Origin: Escherichia phage vB_EcoS_ASO78B
Sequence record: MZ726796.1
Direction: 5' to 3' (one strand)
DNA length: 46,233 bases
Below the pieces are notes generated by a model, which was given only the letters and a program-made list of their open reading frames with translations, made no database searches and had not been told where the DNA came from. Made by a program: the position numbers and the translations under genes. Within the stretch, counting starts at the first letter, position 1. Every line of letters begins with the position of its first letter. Below are positions 2,968-46,233 of the stretch, in pieces.

Positions 2968-3156
2968 ATGATTATTAATGAAACGAAAAATTGCTATGAA
3001 CTGCAAGTTAGTCATAGTTTTGGTGATTACCCTATCATTATGCTTACTTCATTCCGTGAAGGTGATGATGTTAATTCTATCGGCATTGATAAACACCAAG
3101 CCACGCAACTAATCGAAGTTCTGCAGCGCTGGGTTAATGGCGAGGAGATTGAGTGA
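2968..3156 (+). CDS. hypothetical protein
   Basis: 62 aa from ATG 2968 after GAGGTG RBS. Confidence 0.4.
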   Translation: MIINETKNCYELQVSHSFGDYPIIMLTSFREGDDVNSIGIDKHQATQLIEVLQRWVNGEEIE

Positions 3157-7368: not shown

Positions 7369-7779
7369 TTATTCCTCAATATCTCGCCAGTCCATATTGG
7401 ACTCGTTTTGTCCGTACACCCCACCGTAAAAGCCTTCACCCGGCCATACGATTTCGCCGCCATAATATCCGTTTGAATCATTGCGATAGTCAATCACCAT
7501 GTCACCTTTGTTGGTTGTAATTTTCGCTCCGTAGTATTGAACGTAATCACAACCTGGTATATCACCCAAGTCAGGCATTGCCAAATCTTCACACCCAATA
7601 ATAGTAAATGGCAACCCTAGCGCAGGCATTTCAACTGATTCAATCCATGTATACGAGCAGCAATCAGCATCAACGCGAACAACCAGTTCCTCACCATTAT
7701 CACAAACAAAAAGCATAGCCAGCTTATCTTCTGCAATTTTCACATCAACAATTTTCTTACCAATCAGTTTGTTTTCCAT
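7369..7779 (-). CDS. hypothetical protein
   Basis: 136 aa from ATG 7779 (MENKLIGKK..) with GAGGTG RBS; Gly/Tyr-rich C-terminus. Confidence 0.5.
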   Translation of the reverse strand: MENKLIGKKIVDVKIAEDKLAMLFVCDNGEELVVRVDADCCSYTWIESVEMPALGLPFTIIGCEDLAMPDLGDIPGCDYVQYYGAKITTNKGDMVIDYRNDSNGYYGGEIVWPGEGFYGGVYGQNESNMDWRDIEE

Positions 7780-7884: not shown

Positions 7885-8163
7885 ATGAAACTATCGCAAC
7901 GCGGCAAAGATACGCTTGGAATCGCCGATGCCGTGGATATATCGCCTTACATCACCACTGAGACAACGCAGAGTCAGTTTGATGCGATGACAAGTCTCGC
8001 CACCGACATTGGCATTGACGCTTTCCGCAAATCAACACTTCTGAGGAAACACAACCTTCGCTGCTTCTCGTGTGCGGTTGCACATTTCATCGTGTGGGGC
8101 GAGAAGACCGACAACAAAGCAAAACGCAAAGCTGAAAAAGAGGTTTACTGGTATGGCTATTAG
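7885..8163 (+). CDS. T4/P22-type (GH24) lysozyme-like protein lacking the catalytic N-terminal region
   Basis: residues 28-75 align to the C-terminal half of P22 gp19-type lysozymes (QxQ[FY]DA..SL...IG..AF..ST.LR..NL), but about 45 aa containing the catalytic region are missing; strong AGGAGG RBS. Confidence 0.5.
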   Translation: MKLSQRGKDTLGIADAVDISPYITTETTQSQFDAMTSLATDIGIDAFRKSTLLRKHNLRCFSCAVAHFIVWGEKTDNKAKRKAEKEVYWYGY

Positions 8164-8617
8164 CAAAAACATGAAGGCATTTCTGAATATGCTGGCGTAC
8201 AGTGAGGGCACGGATAACGGGCGGCAGAAAACCAATAATCATGGATATGATGTGATTGTTGGTGGCTCACTGTTTACCGACTATTCCGATCATCCGCGCA
8301 AGCTGATTAGCCTGCCTAAGCTGGGCATCAAATCCACTGCTGCAGGGCGCTATCAGGTGCTGGCTAAGTTTTATGACGCGTATAAAAAGCAGCTGCGCCT
8401 GCCTGACTTCTCTCCCGCATCACAGGACGCTATTGCAATGCAGCTAATCCGTGAATGCAAGGCCACTGCCGACATCGAGGCAGGGCGCATTGCTGATGCA
8501 ATCCATAAATGCCGCTCCCGCTGGGCTTCATTGCCGGGTGCTGGCTATGGTCAGCATGAGCAGAAGCTGGATAAGCTGATTCAGGTATACAAGGATGCTG
8601 GTGGGGCTGTGGCATGA
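8153..8617 (+). CDS. R: endolysin, lambda R-like lytic transglycosylase
   Basis: near-colinear match to lambda R: AFLNMLAYSEGTDNGRQKT.NHGYDVIVGG.LFTDYSDHPRKL, WASLPGAGYGQ.E. Confidence 0.9.
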   Translation: MAISKNMKAFLNMLAYSEGTDNGRQKTNNHGYDVIVGGSLFTDYSDHPRKLISLPKLGIKSTAAGRYQVLAKFYDAYKKQLRLPDFSPASQDAIAMQLIRECKATADIEAGRIADAIHKCRSRWASLPGAGYGQHEQKLDKLIQVYKDAGGAVA

Positions 8618-8853
8618 AAAAGTTAAGCAACTGGCTGCTCGGCGCGTGGATTTCGTTCTGTTCACTGCTGCAGCTATGGCCTGATGCAATGATGCATGTG
8701 TGGGTAATGATGCCGGATGACCTGAAAGCGGCGCTGCCTCCAATTGTGGTCAAGGGTGTGAGCTATTCAATCATGCTGGTTGGTATCCTCGGCAAGATGC
8801 ACGGCATGAGGAAGGAAAACCGGAGGCTGCGCAATAATGTCGATTCTCGCTAA
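8614..8853 (+). CDS. holin (putative, two TMDs)
   Basis: 79 aa, two hydrophobic segments and a basic C-tail; ATGA overlap with endolysin stop. Confidence 0.55.
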   Translation: MKKLSNWLLGAWISFCSLLQLWPDAMMHVWVMMPDDLKAALPPIVVKGVSYSIMLVGILGKMHGMRKENRRLRNNVDSR

Positions 8854-9325
8854 ATACTGGCGACCGTTGGCAATTATTATAATTGTTGTGCTCTGCGCGC
8901 TATGGGTGCGTGGCGAAATCATCAGCTACGGCGACCAGCGATACGCAGACGGATATGAAAAAGCCGTCGCAGACCAGAAGGCTGCAGACGAACAAGAGGA
9001 GCAACGACGCAATGCAGAACTGCAAAAGATTCAGGCCGACGCACGGCAAAGGATTGACGCTGCGCGCAATGATGCTGTCAATGCTGCTGCTAAGTCTGGC
9101 AGGTTGCAGCAACAACTCGCAAACATCCGCAAGCAGCTCGTCGGATATTCCACCACTGAGTCCATTGGCAACCCAGCCGCAGAAACCGGAGTTTTGCTCT
9201 CCGGCGTGCTCAGCAAATCTGTCGAAAGAAATCGACAACTGGCAGATTACGCTGACCGGGCAAGGGAAGCAGGACTAGCGTGTGAGGCGCAATACAATTC
9301 GCTGCGCAATAAAAAAGCCCCGTAA
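8837..9325 (+). CDS. i-spanin (Rz-like)
   Basis: N-terminal TMD LAIIIIVVLCALWV followed by a charged coiled-coil-like periplasmic domain; immediately downstream of endolysin and holin. Confidence 0.75.
   Translation: MSILAKYWRPLAIIIIVVLCALWVRGEIISYGDQRYADGYEKAVADQKAADEQEEQRRNAELQKIQADARQRIDAARNDAVNAAAKSGRLQQQLANIRKQLVGYSTTESIGNPAAETGVLLSGVLSKSVERNRQLADYADRAREAGLACEAQYNSLRNKKAP
9069..9278 (+). CDS. o-spanin (Rz1-like lipoprotein), nested in i-spanin +1 frame
   Basis: MMLSMLLLSLAGC lipobox then Pro/Ser-rich 69-aa product, entirely inside the Rz-like gene. Confidence 0.7.
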   Translation: MMLSMLLLSLAGCSNNSQTSASSSSDIPPLSPLATQPQKPEFCSPACSANLSKEIDNWQITLTGQGKQD

Positions 9326-17003: not shown

Positions 17004-17540
17004 CTACAGACGCATCGGCATAACAACAATCTTCGCAGTCTCGCCAGTTGGCGCACTAAGGCAGCAAGCTGCGGCATTTGTATTCCCATTCAATTCAAAC
17101 TTAACGCTACAGAATTTAGGATTAAACAGCTTCGCAGCTTTCTCGATATCCACAAGATAGCCAGCATTGAATCCGATGCAATCAGCAGCTTTCGTTTCCT
17201 TTGGTATCACGCGATCAATATCAGGGAATCGACCATCAATCTCTTCGCAGATACCAGCGCCAACCATCACGCCAGCTTCATTATGATATGTTGCAATTTT
17301 CGCCTTAGTATCAATGATTGCGCACTCATATCGCTTTGTTGGTGCCTTGCCAATCTTGATAATCACATTTTCTGTCAGCTTATTGTCATGACTGCTGCCA
17401 ATAAATGCACGATGACCGTCAGTTGATGCAATACGACCATCAGGCATAAAGCAAATACCATTCAGGTAGTAACGCACATCATTGCGAGCCTGAAATATTA
17501 ATGCTGATTCAAGTAATAGTTTGCTGATTTTTAGTTTCAT
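17004..17540 (-). CDS. truncated beta sliding-clamp (DnaN domain II-III) homolog
   Basis: DVRYYLNG, ASTDGHRA, IDGRFPD.DRVIPK and C-terminal KIVVMPMRL align to E. coli DnaN residues about 133-366; domain I absent, domain III shortened. Confidence 0.7.
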   Translation of the reverse strand: MKLKISKLLLESALIFQARNDVRYYLNGICFMPDGRIASTDGHRAFIGSSHDNKLTENVIIKIGKAPTKRYECAIIDTKAKIATYHNEAGVMVGAGICEEIDGRFPDIDRVIPKETKAADCIGFNAGYLVDIEKAAKLFNPKFCSVKFELNGNTNAAACCLSAPTGETAKIVVMPMRL

Positions 17541-21927: not shown

Positions 21928-22003
21928 TGGCACACCATGCAGGATTCGAACCTGCAACCAATAGCTTAGAAGGCTACTGCTCTGTCCGTTGAGCTAATGG
22001 TGT
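21928..22003 (-). tRNA. tRNA-Arg (anticodon UCU)
   Basis: 76-nt cloverleaf read by hand: 7-bp acceptor stem ACACCAT/ATGGTGT, D-arm GCTC-AACGGACA-GAGC, anticodon loop CTTCTAA, T-arm GCAGG-TTCGAAT-CCTGC, encoded CCA. Confidence 0.8.
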
Positions 22004-22009
22004 TTGATT

Positions 22010-22097
22010 TGGCGGATAGTACAGGATTCGAACCTGTGAACCGTTTCCAGTTTATCGGTTAGCAACCGACTGCTTTCGGCCTCTCAGCCAACTATCC
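22010..22097 (-). tRNA. tRNA-Ser (anticodon GCU), type II
   Basis: 88 nt with long variable arm; acceptor GGATAGT/ACTATCC, anticodon loop TTGCTAA, T-arm ACAGG-TTCGAAT-CCTGT, encoded CCA. Confidence 0.75.
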
Positions 22098-23962: not shown

Positions 23963-24102
23963 ATCACCTTATCCTCATCAAAAATCACGCCAATCACACG
24001 AAGCAGGTCTTTCGCCATGCGCTCTGCTTCTTCGTAGTCATAACCTGCATCGACATACAAATCAGTGTAGAAAGTCAGGTCGGCTTTTGTTTGTTCGTTC
24101 AT
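23959..24102 (-). CDS. small acidic hypothetical protein (47 aa)
   Basis: Hand-translated; ATGA overlaps with both neighbours. Confidence 0.3.
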   Translation of the reverse strand: MNEQTKADLTFYTDLYVDAGYDYEEAERMAKDLLRVIGVIFDEDKVI

Positions 24103-24293
24103 TTCTTGTCGTCGCTCTTAACTAATGCCCAAACCAGTGCGGCGACCCAACCAATAAAACTCCATCCAACGAGAATATTCAGTACGCAGATTGCAGTCCT
24201 GTTTACGTGCTTGCGTTGAAGAGCCACAAAAGATGGCAGAAGGTACACAAATATCACCAAACCAACAAAAAACAACAAAATAACAACATCCAT
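24099..24293 (-). CDS. superinfection-immunity (Imm-family)-like small membrane protein
   Basis: 64 aa, two TMDs; YLLPSFVALQRKH.NR.AI.VLNILVGWSFIGWVAALVWAL matches the Imm-family signature as recalled. Confidence 0.55.
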   Translation of the reverse strand: MDVVILLFFVGLVIFVYLLPSFVALQRKHVNRTAICVLNILVGWSFIGWVAALVWALVKSDDKK

Positions 24294-42967: not shown

Positions 42968-43400
42968 TCGATTTTTACCTAATTTACCGTATATTTATTG
43001 GTCAGTTTTTTGCATAACTAATTGATTTATATGATTTTACCGGTTTTACCGGAACTCTAATGAGTATTTTCATCATTGAGAGTGTCAGTATATTAATTGG
43101 TCTAATTTTTAAAGAACTCCAATAAAATCAATATATTAATATAAGAAAGTAACTTACTTACTTATATAGGATTTACCGGGTAAAACCGGTAACTCCTCCG
43201 CAGCCCGCGTCATTACTGGATTGATTTTTACCACCTGTAGGTAAATACAGTAGTTTTTAAGTCAGGATTGTTTTTGTAAGATGTTGATTACCGGTACTTT
43301 ATTTGAAAAACCGGGATTTACCGGGTTTTTGTGGTGTGATTAATAATCGCGCAATTGGTCATGTTTCACCAGAACCCACTAATGCGACACCTGAAAATCA
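42968..43400. repeat. AT-rich divergent control region with ACCGG iterons
   Basis: at least 7 copies of TTTACCGG/ACCGG[GT] at 43034-43051, 43171-43190, 43285-43296, 43306-43329; inverted TTTACC..GGTAAA at 43225-43245; no ORF. Confidence 0.6.
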
Positions 43401-43401
43401 T

Positions 43402-43430
43402 ATTGACGTAGAGTCACAACTGATGTAGAT
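43402..43430 (+). promoter_or_regulatory. sigma70 promoter for the right-end + strand genes
   Basis: TTGACG, 17-nt spacer, TAGATT, 30 nt upstream of ATG 43461; both hexamers sit within copies of the recurring motif. Confidence 0.5.
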
Positions 43431-43460
43431 TGAACTCATCGAAACAACGAGGGTGAAGAG

Positions 43461-43646
43461 ATGAGCAAAGAAAGCACGTACAGCATCGACCAGATGAAGT
43501 TATTCAGCGATATATGCATGGCATTATCACAACAGGTTCCGAGCCTTCCTGCTGACATGCGTTCAAATGCAATCATTGATGCAGCAAACATGATTTGCGA
43601 GGCTTATGCGATAACTGAAGATGAATATAAGGATTCGAAGAAATGA
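43461..43646 (+). CDS. hypothetical protein
   Basis: 61 aa; GAGGGTGAAGAG RBS. Confidence 0.4.
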   Translation: MSKESTYSIDQMKLFSDICMALSQQVPSLPADMRSNAIIDAANMICEAYAITEDEYKDSKK

Positions 43647-43738
43647 CAGGCGCAACACTCGGGCTTATCGCCAGCCTGGTTATCGTGGCATTCATCATTA
43701 TCGCAGTGGCAGTTTCAAAATCAGGGTATAAGGAGTGA
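43643..43738 (+). CDS. small single-TM peptide (31 aa)
   Basis: Hand-translated MTGATLGLIASLVIVAFIIIAVAVSKSGYKE; ATGA-coupled to the upstream gene. Confidence 0.3.
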   Translation: MTGATLGLIASLVIVAFIIIAVAVSKSGYKE

Positions 43739-43741
43739 AAA

Positions 43742-43900
43742 ATGAGCAACAAACCAATCCAACCAACAGAAGAAATGATTGAGGCGGGTATCCGTGAAGT
43801 TATTGAAAACTTCGATATCGACTACCTCACTGATGATGAGCTAAGCGATGCCGTTGTGTTCATCTGGCAGGCAATGTATCAGGCGCACGTGGAGAAATAA
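43742..43900 (+). CDS. small acidic hypothetical protein (52 aa)
   Basis: Hand-translated; AGGAG RBS 6 nt upstream. Confidence 0.35.
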   Translation: MSNKPIQPTEEMIEAGIREVIENFDIDYLTDDELSDAVVFIWQAMYQAHVEK

Positions 43901-43903
43901 CAA

Positions 43904-44086
43904 ATGGCAAAAACCATCTATCGTCGCGAGAAGCTGGAACAAGAACTCGGACACGTTGGTGCGCAGAACTTCATGAACAAGCAGGCACGCAATGCAATGG
44001 AATCTATCCGCGTAAATCGAGTTGTGCGCGTGTTTAATGGTGAAGGTAAGCGCAGAGTAATGGATGAGCTGATTATCGTATTCTGA
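43904..44086 (+). CDS. hypothetical basic protein
   Basis: 60-aa track ORF. Confidence 0.4.
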   Translation: MAKTIYRREKLEQELGHVGAQNFMNKQARNAMESIRVNRVVRVFNGEGKRRVMDELIIVF

Positions 44087-44122
44087 CATCGATTCAGCGC
44101 TTTTATTTTTAATGGTGATGAT

Positions 44123-44356
44123 ATGGCAAAAGTGAAAACATACGAGTTCTGGTTTGTGCAGAACAAAATGTATGCGAGCAAAACAATCAAGAAAGTGCGT
44201 TGGTGGAACAAGTGGTTAATCATGTCCGGCTGCATCGTGCTGGAAAAGTGCAAATTCAAAGCGATTGATATCACTGATGAGGACGCGCTCACAATCGCAA
44301 AGATTGAGTTTGAGGAAGATGGCTATTACGAAGAAATCATGGGGGTTAGGGTATGA
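44123..44356 (+). CDS. hypothetical protein
   Basis: 77-aa track ORF. Confidence 0.4.
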   Translation: MAKVKTYEFWFVQNKMYASKTIKKVRWWNKWLIMSGCIVLEKCKFKAIDITDEDALTIAKIEFEEDGYYEEIMGVRV

Positions 44357-44697
44357 GTGAAGTAAAGCGTTATGACATGAGGGTTTCATTTGGTGGAGTT
44401 GAATCTTACGAATCACCATGTGGTGATTATGTTGACTACGATGACTACGCGGCACTGCAAGCTAAATGCGCGGCGCTTGCGGCGGAGAATGCTGGGCTGA
44501 AGACAACACACCCTCAACCGTTCGGACCTGAGATGATGAAGGCTCTTGATGCGTATGAGAAGCATCAGGATGAAGTGCCGGAGGTTGGAATGCTTGATGC
44601 ATTTTTCATCTTGCGCGACAGCATCCGTGTTAAAACCCCAGCCACCGATGCTTTCCTTGCTGAAGTGCGGGCGCAGGGGGTTGAGAGGGCACCTTAA
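44353..44697 (+). CDS. hypothetical protein
   Basis: 114 aa; ATGA overlap; Ala-rich coiled-coil-like segment. Confidence 0.45.
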   Translation: MSEVKRYDMRVSFGGVESYESPCGDYVDYDDYAALQAKCAALAAENAGLKTTHPQPFGPEMMKALDAYEKHQDEVPEVGMLDAFFILRDSIRVKTPATDAFLAEVRAQGVERAP

Positions 44698-44745
44698 TGA
44701 AATATATGACGGTGTAATTGTTAATAAGAAAGAAGGAAACTCAGC

Positions 44746-45612
44746 ATGATCACTATTACCAAAGAGCGACTGCTGACAATCCAGCAGTGGCGCGAAACAT
44801 ACGGACCGGGTAGCAACGTTGTACTGCCAGCAGAAGAAGCGGAAGAACTGGCACGAATTGCTCTGGCAGCGCTGGAAGTCGAGCCGATAGGTTTCCGTTG
44901 CAGGCGCAATGATAACCTTGGTGATTGGAGTTACGTATATCATCGAGAGCCAGATGATTTTGAGCGCAAACATTTAGTGATAGAGGGTATTTACGCCGCC
45001 CCTCCAGCGCAAGTAGTACCGGAAGAAAAACCAATGCCTAATCCTCTTAGCATGTACGCGGTTGATGCTGTTGCCGCTATTGCAGAGGTGAGAGGCTGGA
45101 ACGCCTGCCGTGCAGCTATGCTTCAGTCCGGAAACTTTCGGGAAAACAAGAATTCGTCAACCAATAATTTTAGGGAAATCGCGGAAACGTCAACCAACTA
45201 TCCGGTAATTCCTAGTGAGGTGTTGTCCGCAATCCAGAAGGTTGCCAAGATTCGTGCCGATTTCGATGATTTTGACGGTGACAGGCGAGGTATCGGTGAT
45301 TGTCTGGATGAGGCTGAGCAAGAGCTTATCGTTACCATTAACAAATATGCCAGTCAGTTGGCAGCAGAACCGATAGCGACTAATGACGTTCGAGAGCAAA
45401 CAGCCGTTCCGCCAGTTCCTGTAATACAGGCTGATGTCGCGCAGGCAATTGAAAAACTCAAACGGAAATTAGTGGAATGCAATCGCTATAACTACTGCGA
45501 AGATGCAGTTAAGGGCGTTGAGTATGCCTGCCGCGCTGCCATGCTTCAGCGCTCAGAGCCTGTAACAGATAACACCAACCAGCAATTCGAAAGCCTGGCC
45601 AAAAGCGAATAG
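44746..45612 (+). CDS. hypothetical protein with internal repeat
   Basis: 288 aa; motif ACRAAMLQ occurs twice (about residues 118 and 265). Confidence 0.5.
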   Translation: MITITKERLLTIQQWRETYGPGSNVVLPAEEAEELARIALAALEVEPIGFRCRRNDNLGDWSYVYHREPDDFERKHLVIEGIYAAPPAQVVPEEKPMPNPLSMYAVDAVAAIAEVRGWNACRAAMLQSGNFRENKNSSTNNFREIAETSTNYPVIPSEVLSAIQKVAKIRADFDDFDGDRRGIGDCLDEAEQELIVTINKYASQLAAEPIATNDVREQTAVPPVPVIQADVAQAIEKLKRKLVECNRYNYCEDAVKGVEYACRAAMLQRSEPVTDNTNQQFESLAKSE

Positions 45613-45775
45613 CTACCCGTTCATATTAATTATCAGTGCGCTCTATGTGGCGCACGCTTTAGTGGAGGAATACATATGACCAGACACCAACGGCGCCGAT
45701 ACACCACTGGCGCTAAAATATTCCTTGCTGTTTATCTGATGGCATTGGTTGCTGCTATCGCAGGAGTTTTGCATT

Positions 45776-45955
45776 ATGTTTAATGATATCAGCGACGCAA
45801 TGCAAAACATGTGGGAACGCTACTGGAACAGCATGAAGACATGCCACTACATGATGGTGCAGATAGGTAATTACATTGAGGTTGTGCCTGATAGTGGTGT
45901 GCATGACATTAAGTGCATGTGCTCAACGAGGGATTATGCTAATGCAAACAACTAA
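45776..45955 (+). CDS. hypothetical protein
   Basis: 59 aa from ATG 45776 with AGGAG RBS; a 35-aa TM peptide ORF at 45676-45783 precedes it. Confidence 0.3.
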   Translation: MFNDISDAMQNMWERYWNSMKTCHYMMVQIGNYIEVVPDSGVHDIKCMCSTRDYANANN

Positions 45956-46115
45956 AGCCAATGTTTGGCAGCTCGCAAAGCAGCACGAATTAGACGATTT
46001 TATCGCGAAGGTTGCAAAGGCATTCCCTGACGCGCTTGAAATCGTTCATGTGCAGACTCGCAATGAAAACGCATGGTGCTATGCTGGCAAGCGTGATAAT
46101 GATGGTGTACAATAA
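45942..46115 (+). CDS. hypothetical protein
   Basis: 57 aa from ATG 45942 with GAGGGA RBS. Confidence 0.3.
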   Translation: MQTTKANVWQLAKQHELDDFIAKVAKAFPDALEIVHVQTRNENAWCYAGKRDNDGVQ

Positions 46116-46160: not shown

Positions 46161-46188
46161 AACCCGCCTTGTGCGGGTTCTTTTTTAT
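46161..46188 (+). terminator. rho-independent terminator
   Basis: AACCCGC-CTTGT-GCGGGTT then T6. Confidence 0.7.
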
Positions 46189-46233
46189 CTGTGTTAAACT
46201 AACGACATCGAAATACGAAAAGACGAAAACAGA

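Follow-up and report, generated by a model that had tools for sequence, protein, structure and literature searches.

The right-hand end of the genome of Escherichia phage vB_EcoS_ASO78B (sequence record MZ726796.1) encodes two very small proteins, each with one predicted transmembrane (TM) helix, which we refer to as P1, the 31-amino-acid (aa) open reading frame (ORF) at 43643-43738 on the forward (+) strand, and P2, the 35-aa ORF at 45676-45783 (+). The whole stretch of DNA analyzed here (the window) comprises 46,233 bases and is the complete genome of a virulent siphophage belonging to the Skatevirus cluster around Salmonella phage Skate, a cluster that also takes in Akira, Sf11, Vi II-E1, LPST10, seszw and the BASEL phages Bas77-81. 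The latter have been classed in the Skatevirus cluster as 46-48 kb O-antigen-dependent siphoviruses (PMC11990801); a literature search found no paper on the P1 or P2 peptides, with the BASEL paper (PMC11990801) only classifying the phage group and a retron paper that mentions Bas81 having no bearing on them. Both genes belong to a rightward operon (43461-46115), which comes after a divergent control region and ends at the right end of the record; their main features are as follows, with distances in nucleotides (nt).

43643-43738 (+): P1 gene, 31 aa, single predicted TM helix; PHROG 35977; homologue of CPT_Skate_083 and seszw_53, both labelled 'membrane protein'
45664-45669 (+): Shine-Dalgarno sequence of P2, GGAGGA, 6 nt upstream of its ATG; -9.3 kcal/mol, in the top 1.3% of window ATGs
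45676-45783 (+): P2 gene, 35 aa, predicted tail-anchored single TM helix; PHROG 9340; homologue of CPT_Skate_087, labelled 'membrane protein'

An earlier note on this DNA had described each peptide as essentially one hydrophobic helix with short charged ends, and the sequences of the P1 product (MTGATLGLIASLVIVAFIIIAVAVSKSGYKE) and the P2 product (MTRHQRRRYTTGAKIFLAVYLMALVAAIAGVLHYV) bear this description out. The best 19-residue Kyte-Doolittle mean was 3.13 for P1, at residues 6-24 (nt 43658-43714), which form its TM core, and 2.40 for P2, at residues 15-33 (nt 45718-45774), the TM segment that follows a basic N-terminal tail of residues 1-14. A mean of at least 2.2 was reached by only 5 of the 246 six-frame ORFs of 28-45 aa in the window, P1 and P2 among them; the three further ORFs passing the same cut-off lie at 2978-3112 (+), 7617-7736 (-) and 17375-17461 (-). 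Summed insertion energies on the Hessa scale were -4.2 kcal/mol for P1 and -0.7 kcal/mol for P2. Judged by sequence, neither TM core carries a charged residue or a polar face, and both peptides fit the small single-pass inner-membrane class (<50 aa, one segment hydrophobic enough to span).

The translation signals proved as good as the earlier note had supposed when it pointed to a ribosome-binding site or ATGA coupling for each peptide. The ATG of P1 shares the sequence ATGA (43643-46) with the TGA stop of the 61-aa ORF before it, and an AAGGA lies 9 nt upstream (anti-Shine-Dalgarno duplex of -6.0 kcal/mol, in the top 8% of window ATGs), while P2 has the GGAGGA site listed above. Among relatives the ATGA overlap with P1 is kept under three different upstream genes, the GGAGGA site of P2 is kept in loci with the same upstream module, and the start codon and coupling of P2 are retained in four different upstream contexts. 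Coupling extends to the genes that follow: the 3' end of P2 shares 8 nt (ATGTTTAA) with the start of the next gene, whose GGAG ribosome site sits in P2 codons A29-G30-V31, and P1 codons 30-31 (K30, E31) are constrained at the DNA level because they form the AAGGAG ribosome site of the gene after P1.

Comparison with 33 related loci from IMG/VR plus GenBank relatives revealed that P1 is present in all 35 related loci (3 copies with a premature stop) and P2 in 32 of them, with one further divergent copy in L015. The copies carry no frame-breaking indels, and the called frame alone is open in nearly all of them. Pairwise ratios of nonsynonymous to synonymous change (dN/dS) were lower in the called frame (P1, 0.24; P2, 0.32) than in any of the other five (0.5-1.9). 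When changes were counted on a haplotype minimum spanning tree, the called frames showed a strong synonymous excess (p=1e-12 for P1 and p=5e-17 for P2) that was lacking in two shifted control frames (p>=0.17) and that persisted away from the ribosome sites (p=4e-7 for P1 codons 2-24; p=1e-12 for P2 codons 5-28). A site-wise test of variable against invariant positions was saturated by singletons (p=0.1 for P1). The substitutions are conservative and hydrophobic. Because of the dN/dS values, the synonymous excess in the called frames, the open frame and the overlaps kept across upstream contexts, we conclude that P1 and P2 are protein-coding genes under purifying selection and not chance ORFs.

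The genes are already known as such, being members of catalogued families of unknown function. P1 matched the hidden Markov model of PHROG 35977 with an E-value of 2.1e-20 (residues 1-31 on profile positions 1-31 of 31), and P2 matched that of PHROG 9340 with an E-value of 3.1e-17 (residues 1-35 on positions 7-41 of 43), a family that the divergent L015 copy of P2 also matches at 2.4e-7. The earlier note had called both peptides unannotated, and here the picture is mixed, since annotation of homologues is present in several GenBank relatives and absent in others: Skate labels both as 'membrane protein' (CPT_Skate_083 and CPT_Skate_087) and Akira, BS5 and seszw do so for P1, while P2 is left out of the annotations of seszw wild type, ZK22 and DS8. 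The Skate (MH321493) homologues share 94% and 89% aa identity with P1 and P2, respectively, and occupy the same operon position, with nothing essential differing; residue 7 of P1 is G in the window and E in most copies. Among GenBank phage records, 126 encode P2 and at least 96 contain P1 DNA. A combined P1 and P2 profile run against 1.84 billion representative proteins returned 7 matches, all of them the same peptides or their fusions, and those with a recorded source came from contigs of ~45-48 kb or short fragments. Both families are thus narrow and confined to the Skatevirus-type phage cluster. Neither peptide matched a Pfam, NCBIfam or PADLOC family or a PDB entry; sub-threshold hits with the P1 and P2 queries were limited to YxzE and Bap31 in Pfam and to unrelated small proteins in NCBIfam. 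Against the cluster phages, the right-hand 2.9 kb of the window shows piecewise identity of 85-92% in a mosaic pattern, and its DUF551/Ead-like segment is the sole piece of the region matched in Escherichia coli chromosomes.

Conservation within the peptides is concentrated next to the membrane segment. The best conserved stretch of P1 is the juxtamembrane motif A-V-S-K-S-G-Y; residues S11, I20, V22, V24, S25, S27 and Y29 are invariant among its copies and G28 is nearly so (one Ser variant), and the codons for S25 and G28 vary synonymously. In P2 the best conserved stretch is the juxtamembrane motif R-Y-x-x-G-A-K-[IV]-F-L-A-x-Y, of which Y9, K14, F16, L17 and Y20 are invariant in the alignment, including in a variant with 36% identity. 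Positions that vary in P2 lie along a single side of the helix (best period 95 degrees, permutation p 0.04-0.12), leaving a conserved face of F16, Y20, A23, A27, G30 and V31. From the positive-inside rule, P1 is predicted to lie N-out/C-in with a cytoplasmic tail SKSGYKE, because K26 and K30 sit in the C-terminal tail and E7 sits in the N-terminal tail of most homologues; P2 is predicted to lie N-in/C-out, with 5-6 positive charges before the helix and only H-Y-V outside. Codon 7 of P1 (43661-43663) is the most changeable functional position of the peptide: most copies have GAA or GAG (Glu) there, the window and one database protein have GGG (Gly), and two relatives have TAG or TAA. P2 has variants of its own (proteins P0026, P0028 and P0034; P0027, P0031 and P0040), some with 2- or 4-residue 'AL' insertions in the TM helix, others being chimeras in which the N-terminal half of P2 is joined to the RGW...ACRAAML motif of an Ead/DUF551-like protein. 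The two parts of the chimeras meet at a stretch common to both proteins (VAAIAGV / VAAIAEV), as if short homology had served for recombination.

Both genes can be lost without loss of viability. Yuan et al. used iterative CRISPR deletion to shrink the genome of the Skatevirus seszw, deposited 69 mutant genomes and reported viable loss of "genes 55-59" (PMC9825161), a block that we found to contain P2 and its cassette. Megablast at >=99% identity returned 70 records with a terminase control fragment, 15 with P1 and 43 with P2; after subtraction of the wild type, Seszw_1 and Skate, P1 is kept by at most about 10 of the 69 mutants (about 59 without) and P2 by about 40 of the 69 (about 29 without). 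Deletion junctions were checked in three mutants, with these outcomes.

seszw_300S: P1 deleted along with everything up to gene 59; P2 deleted
seszw_190L (L047, MZ375331): P1 cleanly deleted; P2 broken by a 46-nt tandem duplication with a frameshift in the TM segment (1545-1700)
seszw_6t3, from a series selected for faster killing: P1 deleted; P2 intact

The seszw_190L mutant is viable with the two cassette genes after P2 intact. Stops in P1 also occur naturally in three isolates, at codon 7 in VSt472 and a metagenomic phage and at codon 27 in Vi II-E1. We consider P1 and P2 accessory, because they are kept by selection in nature yet are dispensable on one host in broth.

The remaining features of the operon are listed here in order of position.

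43403-43431 (+): sigma-70-type promoter-like sequence, TTGACG-17 nt-TAGATT, 29 nt ahead of the first gene in the operon and 240 nt ahead of P1
43461-43646 (+): 61-aa ORF before P1, whose TGA overlaps the P1 ATG (ATGA)
43730-43735 (+): AAGGAG Shine-Dalgarno sequence for the 43742-43900 gene, inside the end of P1; -8.8 kcal/mol
43742-43900 (+): 52-aa ORF directly after P1, present here and in five relatives
45613-45660 (+): 48-nt trailer of a 288-aa gene, between its TAG stop and the P2 ribosome site and in frame with both genes
45776-45955 (+): 59-aa gene of PHROG 5407, second in the P2 cassette, whose start overlaps the end of P2 by 8 nt
45942-46115 (+): 57-aa DUF7334 / PHROG 18384 gene, third in the cassette and last of the operon
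46161-46189 (+): intrinsic-terminator-like hairpin (46161-46179) and T run that end the operon; a terminator is annotated at the same place in Skate

P2 is the first gene of a cassette whose order, P2 followed by PHROG 5407 and DUF7334, is constant across the loci apart from L015, where DUF7334 comes directly after P2. Both partner genes also occur in Roufvirus (Aeromonas phage pIS4-A and Klebsiella phages MK54, ZCKP8 and YX3973), matching the same PHROGs with E-values of 1e-4 and 1e-17, and there they are preceded by a 30-aa peptide, MKPYIIRRLIAASLLAFWIAVALAVYFILR, with the layout MKPYIIRRL-TM-R. This peptide resembles P2 in occupying the same slot before PHROG 5407 and DUF7334, ahead of the packaging genes, and in having a basic N-terminal end followed by one TM helix. 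It differs from P2 in lacking detectable homology (hhalign probability 1%) or any PHROG match, so that common descent of the two peptides, which we had considered, is unsupported. That a non-homologous peptide takes the place of P2 is an argument for counting a small tail-anchored peptide with a basic N-terminus among the functional components of the cassette. For the partner proteins themselves, AlphaFold2 models gave two helices and a beta hairpin for DUF7334 (mean predicted local distance difference test score, pLDDT, of 86) and one helix and a beta hairpin for PHROG 5407 (a mediocre pLDDT of 72.5). Fold searches with the DUF7334 model found no significant relatives, and a PDB sequence search returned nothing for PHROG 5407 or P2; for DUF7334 it gave a lone match to a de novo designed helical nanopore (E-value 6e-4, no stretch passing alone), which we treated as chance. 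A PHROG 5407 homologue in ZK22 (L044, 801-980) is labelled 'virulence factor', a label for which we found no support. PADLOC defence models matched neither P1 nor P2 nor the Roufvirus 30-aa analogue.

The operon as a whole is made of small genes typical of host takeover, with Stp-like and Lar-like neighbors, and is probably driven early in infection by a host-type promoter. The promoter-like site was found in 33 of 35 loci, with the -35 TTGACG identical in 33 and the -10 TAGATT in 31 (the exceptions being TAGTTT in L019 and TATATT in L032), while the spacer and upstream flank vary. In most relatives the slot after P1 is held by a gene for a peptide (MSNWHNEH...) that resembles T4 Stp, with ~60% identity over 19 aa. 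The similarity to T4 Stp (26 aa) belongs to this neighbor and not to P1, and the window is without that allele. Stp-like ORFs also occur in Drexlerviridae, one of them near a polynucleotide kinase gene in phage Samwise. A functional P1-Stp pair across phage groups was considered and rejected, with the TM ORFs adjacent to T4 stp being dissimilar to P1 and P2 and the Stp-like genes of Drexlerviridae having no TM peptide upstream. Further along, the N-terminal 67 residues of a 114-aa ORF (44353-44697) match a PHROG Lar-like restriction alleviation protein (E-value 1e-6), and the rest of that ORF matches Ead/Ea22-type families; the 288-aa ORF upstream of P2 is of the mosaic Ead/DUF551 kind. The control region (42973-43330), which separates the rightward operon of small genes from the leftward replication operon, holds the motif TTTACCGG about 8 times, some copies direct and others inverted (e.g., at 43037-43052, 43172-43192 and 43309-43328), and these look like operator or iteron sites.

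The sequence between the 288-aa ORF and P2 has a distribution of its own. The two ORFs are in frame, separated by a single TAG (45610-12) and a 63-nt spacer, and the 48-nt element within it carries a 7-bp GC-rich hairpin (45636-45655) and has a mean pairwise difference of 3.4% as against 12% in P2. This nearly invariant element occurs in 132 phage records, among them Nonanavirus/Sashavirus and one Kagunavirus, and sits where EaE-like genes end, also where P2 does not directly follow; a recombination boundary, an RNA processing site or a stabilizer are candidate roles. Rfam revealed no known RNA element under the P1 and P2 ORFs, and the local fold around the P2 leader was no better than that of shuffled sequence. 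Two tRNA genes (21931-22003 and 22013-22097, both -) within the tail-gene region are the only Rfam matches in the genome.

In some relatives P2 is joined to the gene upstream. The stop before P2 is replaced by Tyr in Bas81 and L029, making P2 the tail of the 220-aa protein Bas81_0096 in Bas81 (L002, 3540-4202); two database proteins (P0036 and P0004) have Gln at the stop position, and two others (P0002 and P0024) are frameshift fusions to the upstream protein. Such fusion proteins are 92-220 aa long and end in P2, which forms a C-terminal TM tail. That the TAG (45610-12) is read through in a programmed way to attach P2 to the 288-aa protein was considered and rejected: several relatives have the strong stop TAA at that place, P2 has a strong ribosome site of its own, and the spacer gives no clear coding-frame signal and also travels without P2.

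For the role of the two peptides we favor, with our confidence evenly balanced between its being right and wrong, a reading in which P1 and P2 are early accessory micro-proteins of the inner membrane that bind or modulate a membrane partner. In its favor are the conserved juxtamembrane motifs, TM cores with no polar face to line a pore, the absence of kinship with toxins or holins, the setting of P2 in its cassette and a signature of conditional benefit. Both would be expressed early from a tightly packed, translationally coupled operon of the host-takeover type. Proteins under ~40 aa are too short for co-translational targeting, and insertion of P1 and P2 would be post-translational since they are too short to emerge from the ribosome before release. 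Each may then enter the inner membrane as a single helix, P1 with its N-terminus out and its tail SKSGYKE in the cytoplasm, and P2 with its N-terminus in, as a tail anchor behind a strongly basic cytoplasmic segment. Helix-to-helix and juxtamembrane contacts would bind each to an inner-membrane partner of the host or the phage, which would be modulated as a result, with P2 most likely acting together with the PHROG 5407 and DUF7334 proteins encoded right after it. The benefit would be conditional, for example in countering a membrane-associated host defense or excluding competing phages, which would explain how conserved genes can also be dispensable. More tentatively, and to our minds unlikely, P2, PHROG 5407 and DUF7334 may together form an undescribed three-gene early cassette acting at the cytoplasmic face of the inner membrane in conditional host interference or anti-defense, common to Skatevirus and Roufvirus with a swapped membrane peptide, in which case P1 would be a second, independent micro-effector.

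The earlier note had offered a generic pair of roles, membrane-depolarizing toxins or inhibitors of host membrane proteins, and the evidence leans toward the second in the form of a binder or modulator, with the toxin half less likely. We regard it as rather improbable that P1 and P2 are depolarizing or pore-forming toxins, of type I toxin or holin-like kind, which would bring about host shutdown or set lysis timing through collapse of the proton-motive force. The resemblance is one of build, as TisB, Hok/Gef, Ldr, Ibs and ShoB are of similar size with a single hydrophobic helix, the hydrophobicity of P1 and P2 is very high, and toxic small genes are frequent in early phage operons. Neither peptide belongs to the type I toxin families Hok/Gef, Ldr, TisB, Ibs, ShoB or Fst in Pfam or NCBIfam, neither matches a PHROG of the lysis category or a Pfam holin, and Rfam at gathering thresholds shows no antisense RNA antitoxin at 43.3-46.2 kb, where an undescribed antisense RNA would escape Rfam. 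Unlike the type I toxins, which are under antisense control, P1 and P2 have strong translation signals and are encoded polycistronically in a phage operon, and their TM cores lack a charged, polar or amphipathic face that could line a pore. The phage moreover owns a complete lysis cassette at 7885-9322, with two endolysins, a class II holin (8614-8850) and spanins, 34-37 kb from P1 and P2; seszw is viable without both genes, and its mutant from the faster-killing series lacks P1. Making the membrane leaky is on these grounds less likely than partner binding. Blocking the DNA entry of later phages at the inner membrane, as superinfection-exclusion factors would, fits early expression, an inner-membrane location, and dispensability in single culture together with natural conservation, but we hold this to be quite improbable. 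The genome already has a candidate exclusion gene, because the ORF at 24102-24293 (-), 64 aa with two predicted TM segments, is 94% identical to the annotated Imm-type superinfection immunity protein of Skate; P1 and P2 match neither this Imm-like protein nor any Pfam family, and the known exclusion proteins are larger and unrelated, with no sequence or fold link to P1 or P2. With the lysis cassette and the Imm-like gene lying elsewhere, P1 and P2 are neither the holin of the phage nor its known exclusion protein.

It is unlikely that P2 is mainly a membrane tether with no target of its own, recruiting the two cassette proteins or the upstream-encoded protein to the cytoplasmic face of the inner membrane. 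Conservation of the cassette with a swapped TM peptide in Roufvirus, the repeated in-frame fusion of P2 to whichever gene lies upstream and the tolerance of TM length variants with AL insertions are all consistent with such a role. However, a plain anchor would not need conservation as strict as that of RYxxGAKIFLAxY, and the fusions, which are in the minority, could have arisen as neutral accidents or through sequencing errors. The shared frame is probably incidental, as the in-frame spacer is part of the upstream gene module. That the two ORFs are only coupling spacers, or carriers of the next gene's ribosome site whose peptides have no function, is very improbable: start and stop overlaps on both sides, a downstream Shine-Dalgarno sequence inside both ORFs and the tolerance of deletion would fit, but purifying selection acts on the amino acids over the whole ORF, far from the ribosome sites (the p=4e-7 and 1e-12 given above), the substitutions are conservative and hydrophobic, and a non-homologous peptide of the same architecture fills the P2 slot in Roufvirus.

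Several points count against partner binding by P1 and P2. Translation, membrane location, topology and partner binding are inferred from sequence, and the promoter at 43403-43431 is a match to consensus. The ribosome sites of the next genes confound part of the conservation (P1 codons 30-31 and P2 codons 29-31), the helical periodicity of P2 is weak, and P1 shows none (p=0.81), being too conserved for any pattern. Easy loss in the laboratory equally fits a gene of marginal function, and over-production of a hydrophobic helix can disturb membranes even if the helix has no polar residues.

Two further groups of small membrane proteins come close to P1 and P2. The bacterial inner-membrane regulators AcrZ, MgrB, MgtS, KdpF and CydX each bind a larger membrane protein, which is the mode of action proposed here, and P1 and P2 are like them in being <50 aa with a single TM helix and, as predicted, post-translational insertion; they differ in being phage-encoded and without homology to these bacterial regulators. 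Among phages, T4 ac, 52.1, ndd.4 and ndd.2a are like P1 in encoding proteins of 40-51 aa with a predicted TM segment from an early host-takeover region beside the Stp gene, and P1 in most Skatevirus relatives stands directly before the Stp-like gene, as the T4 TM ORFs stand near stp. The T4 ORFs are unlike P1 and P2 in showing no similarity beyond hydrophobic composition, and the window has no Stp-like allele.

As it stands this is an ordinary finding, of genes already annotated and with no assigned function. Small membrane peptides of phages form a large class, nearly all of it uncharacterized and often skipped by gene callers, as P2 has been. Purifying selection combined with dispensability usually marks genes whose value is limited to particular hosts, defenses or competitors. 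If a partner were found, P1 and P2 would join the few micro-proteins known to regulate membrane proteins, as an example from phages, and could point to a membrane-associated host function that these therapeutic-candidate phages of Salmonella and E. coli must control.

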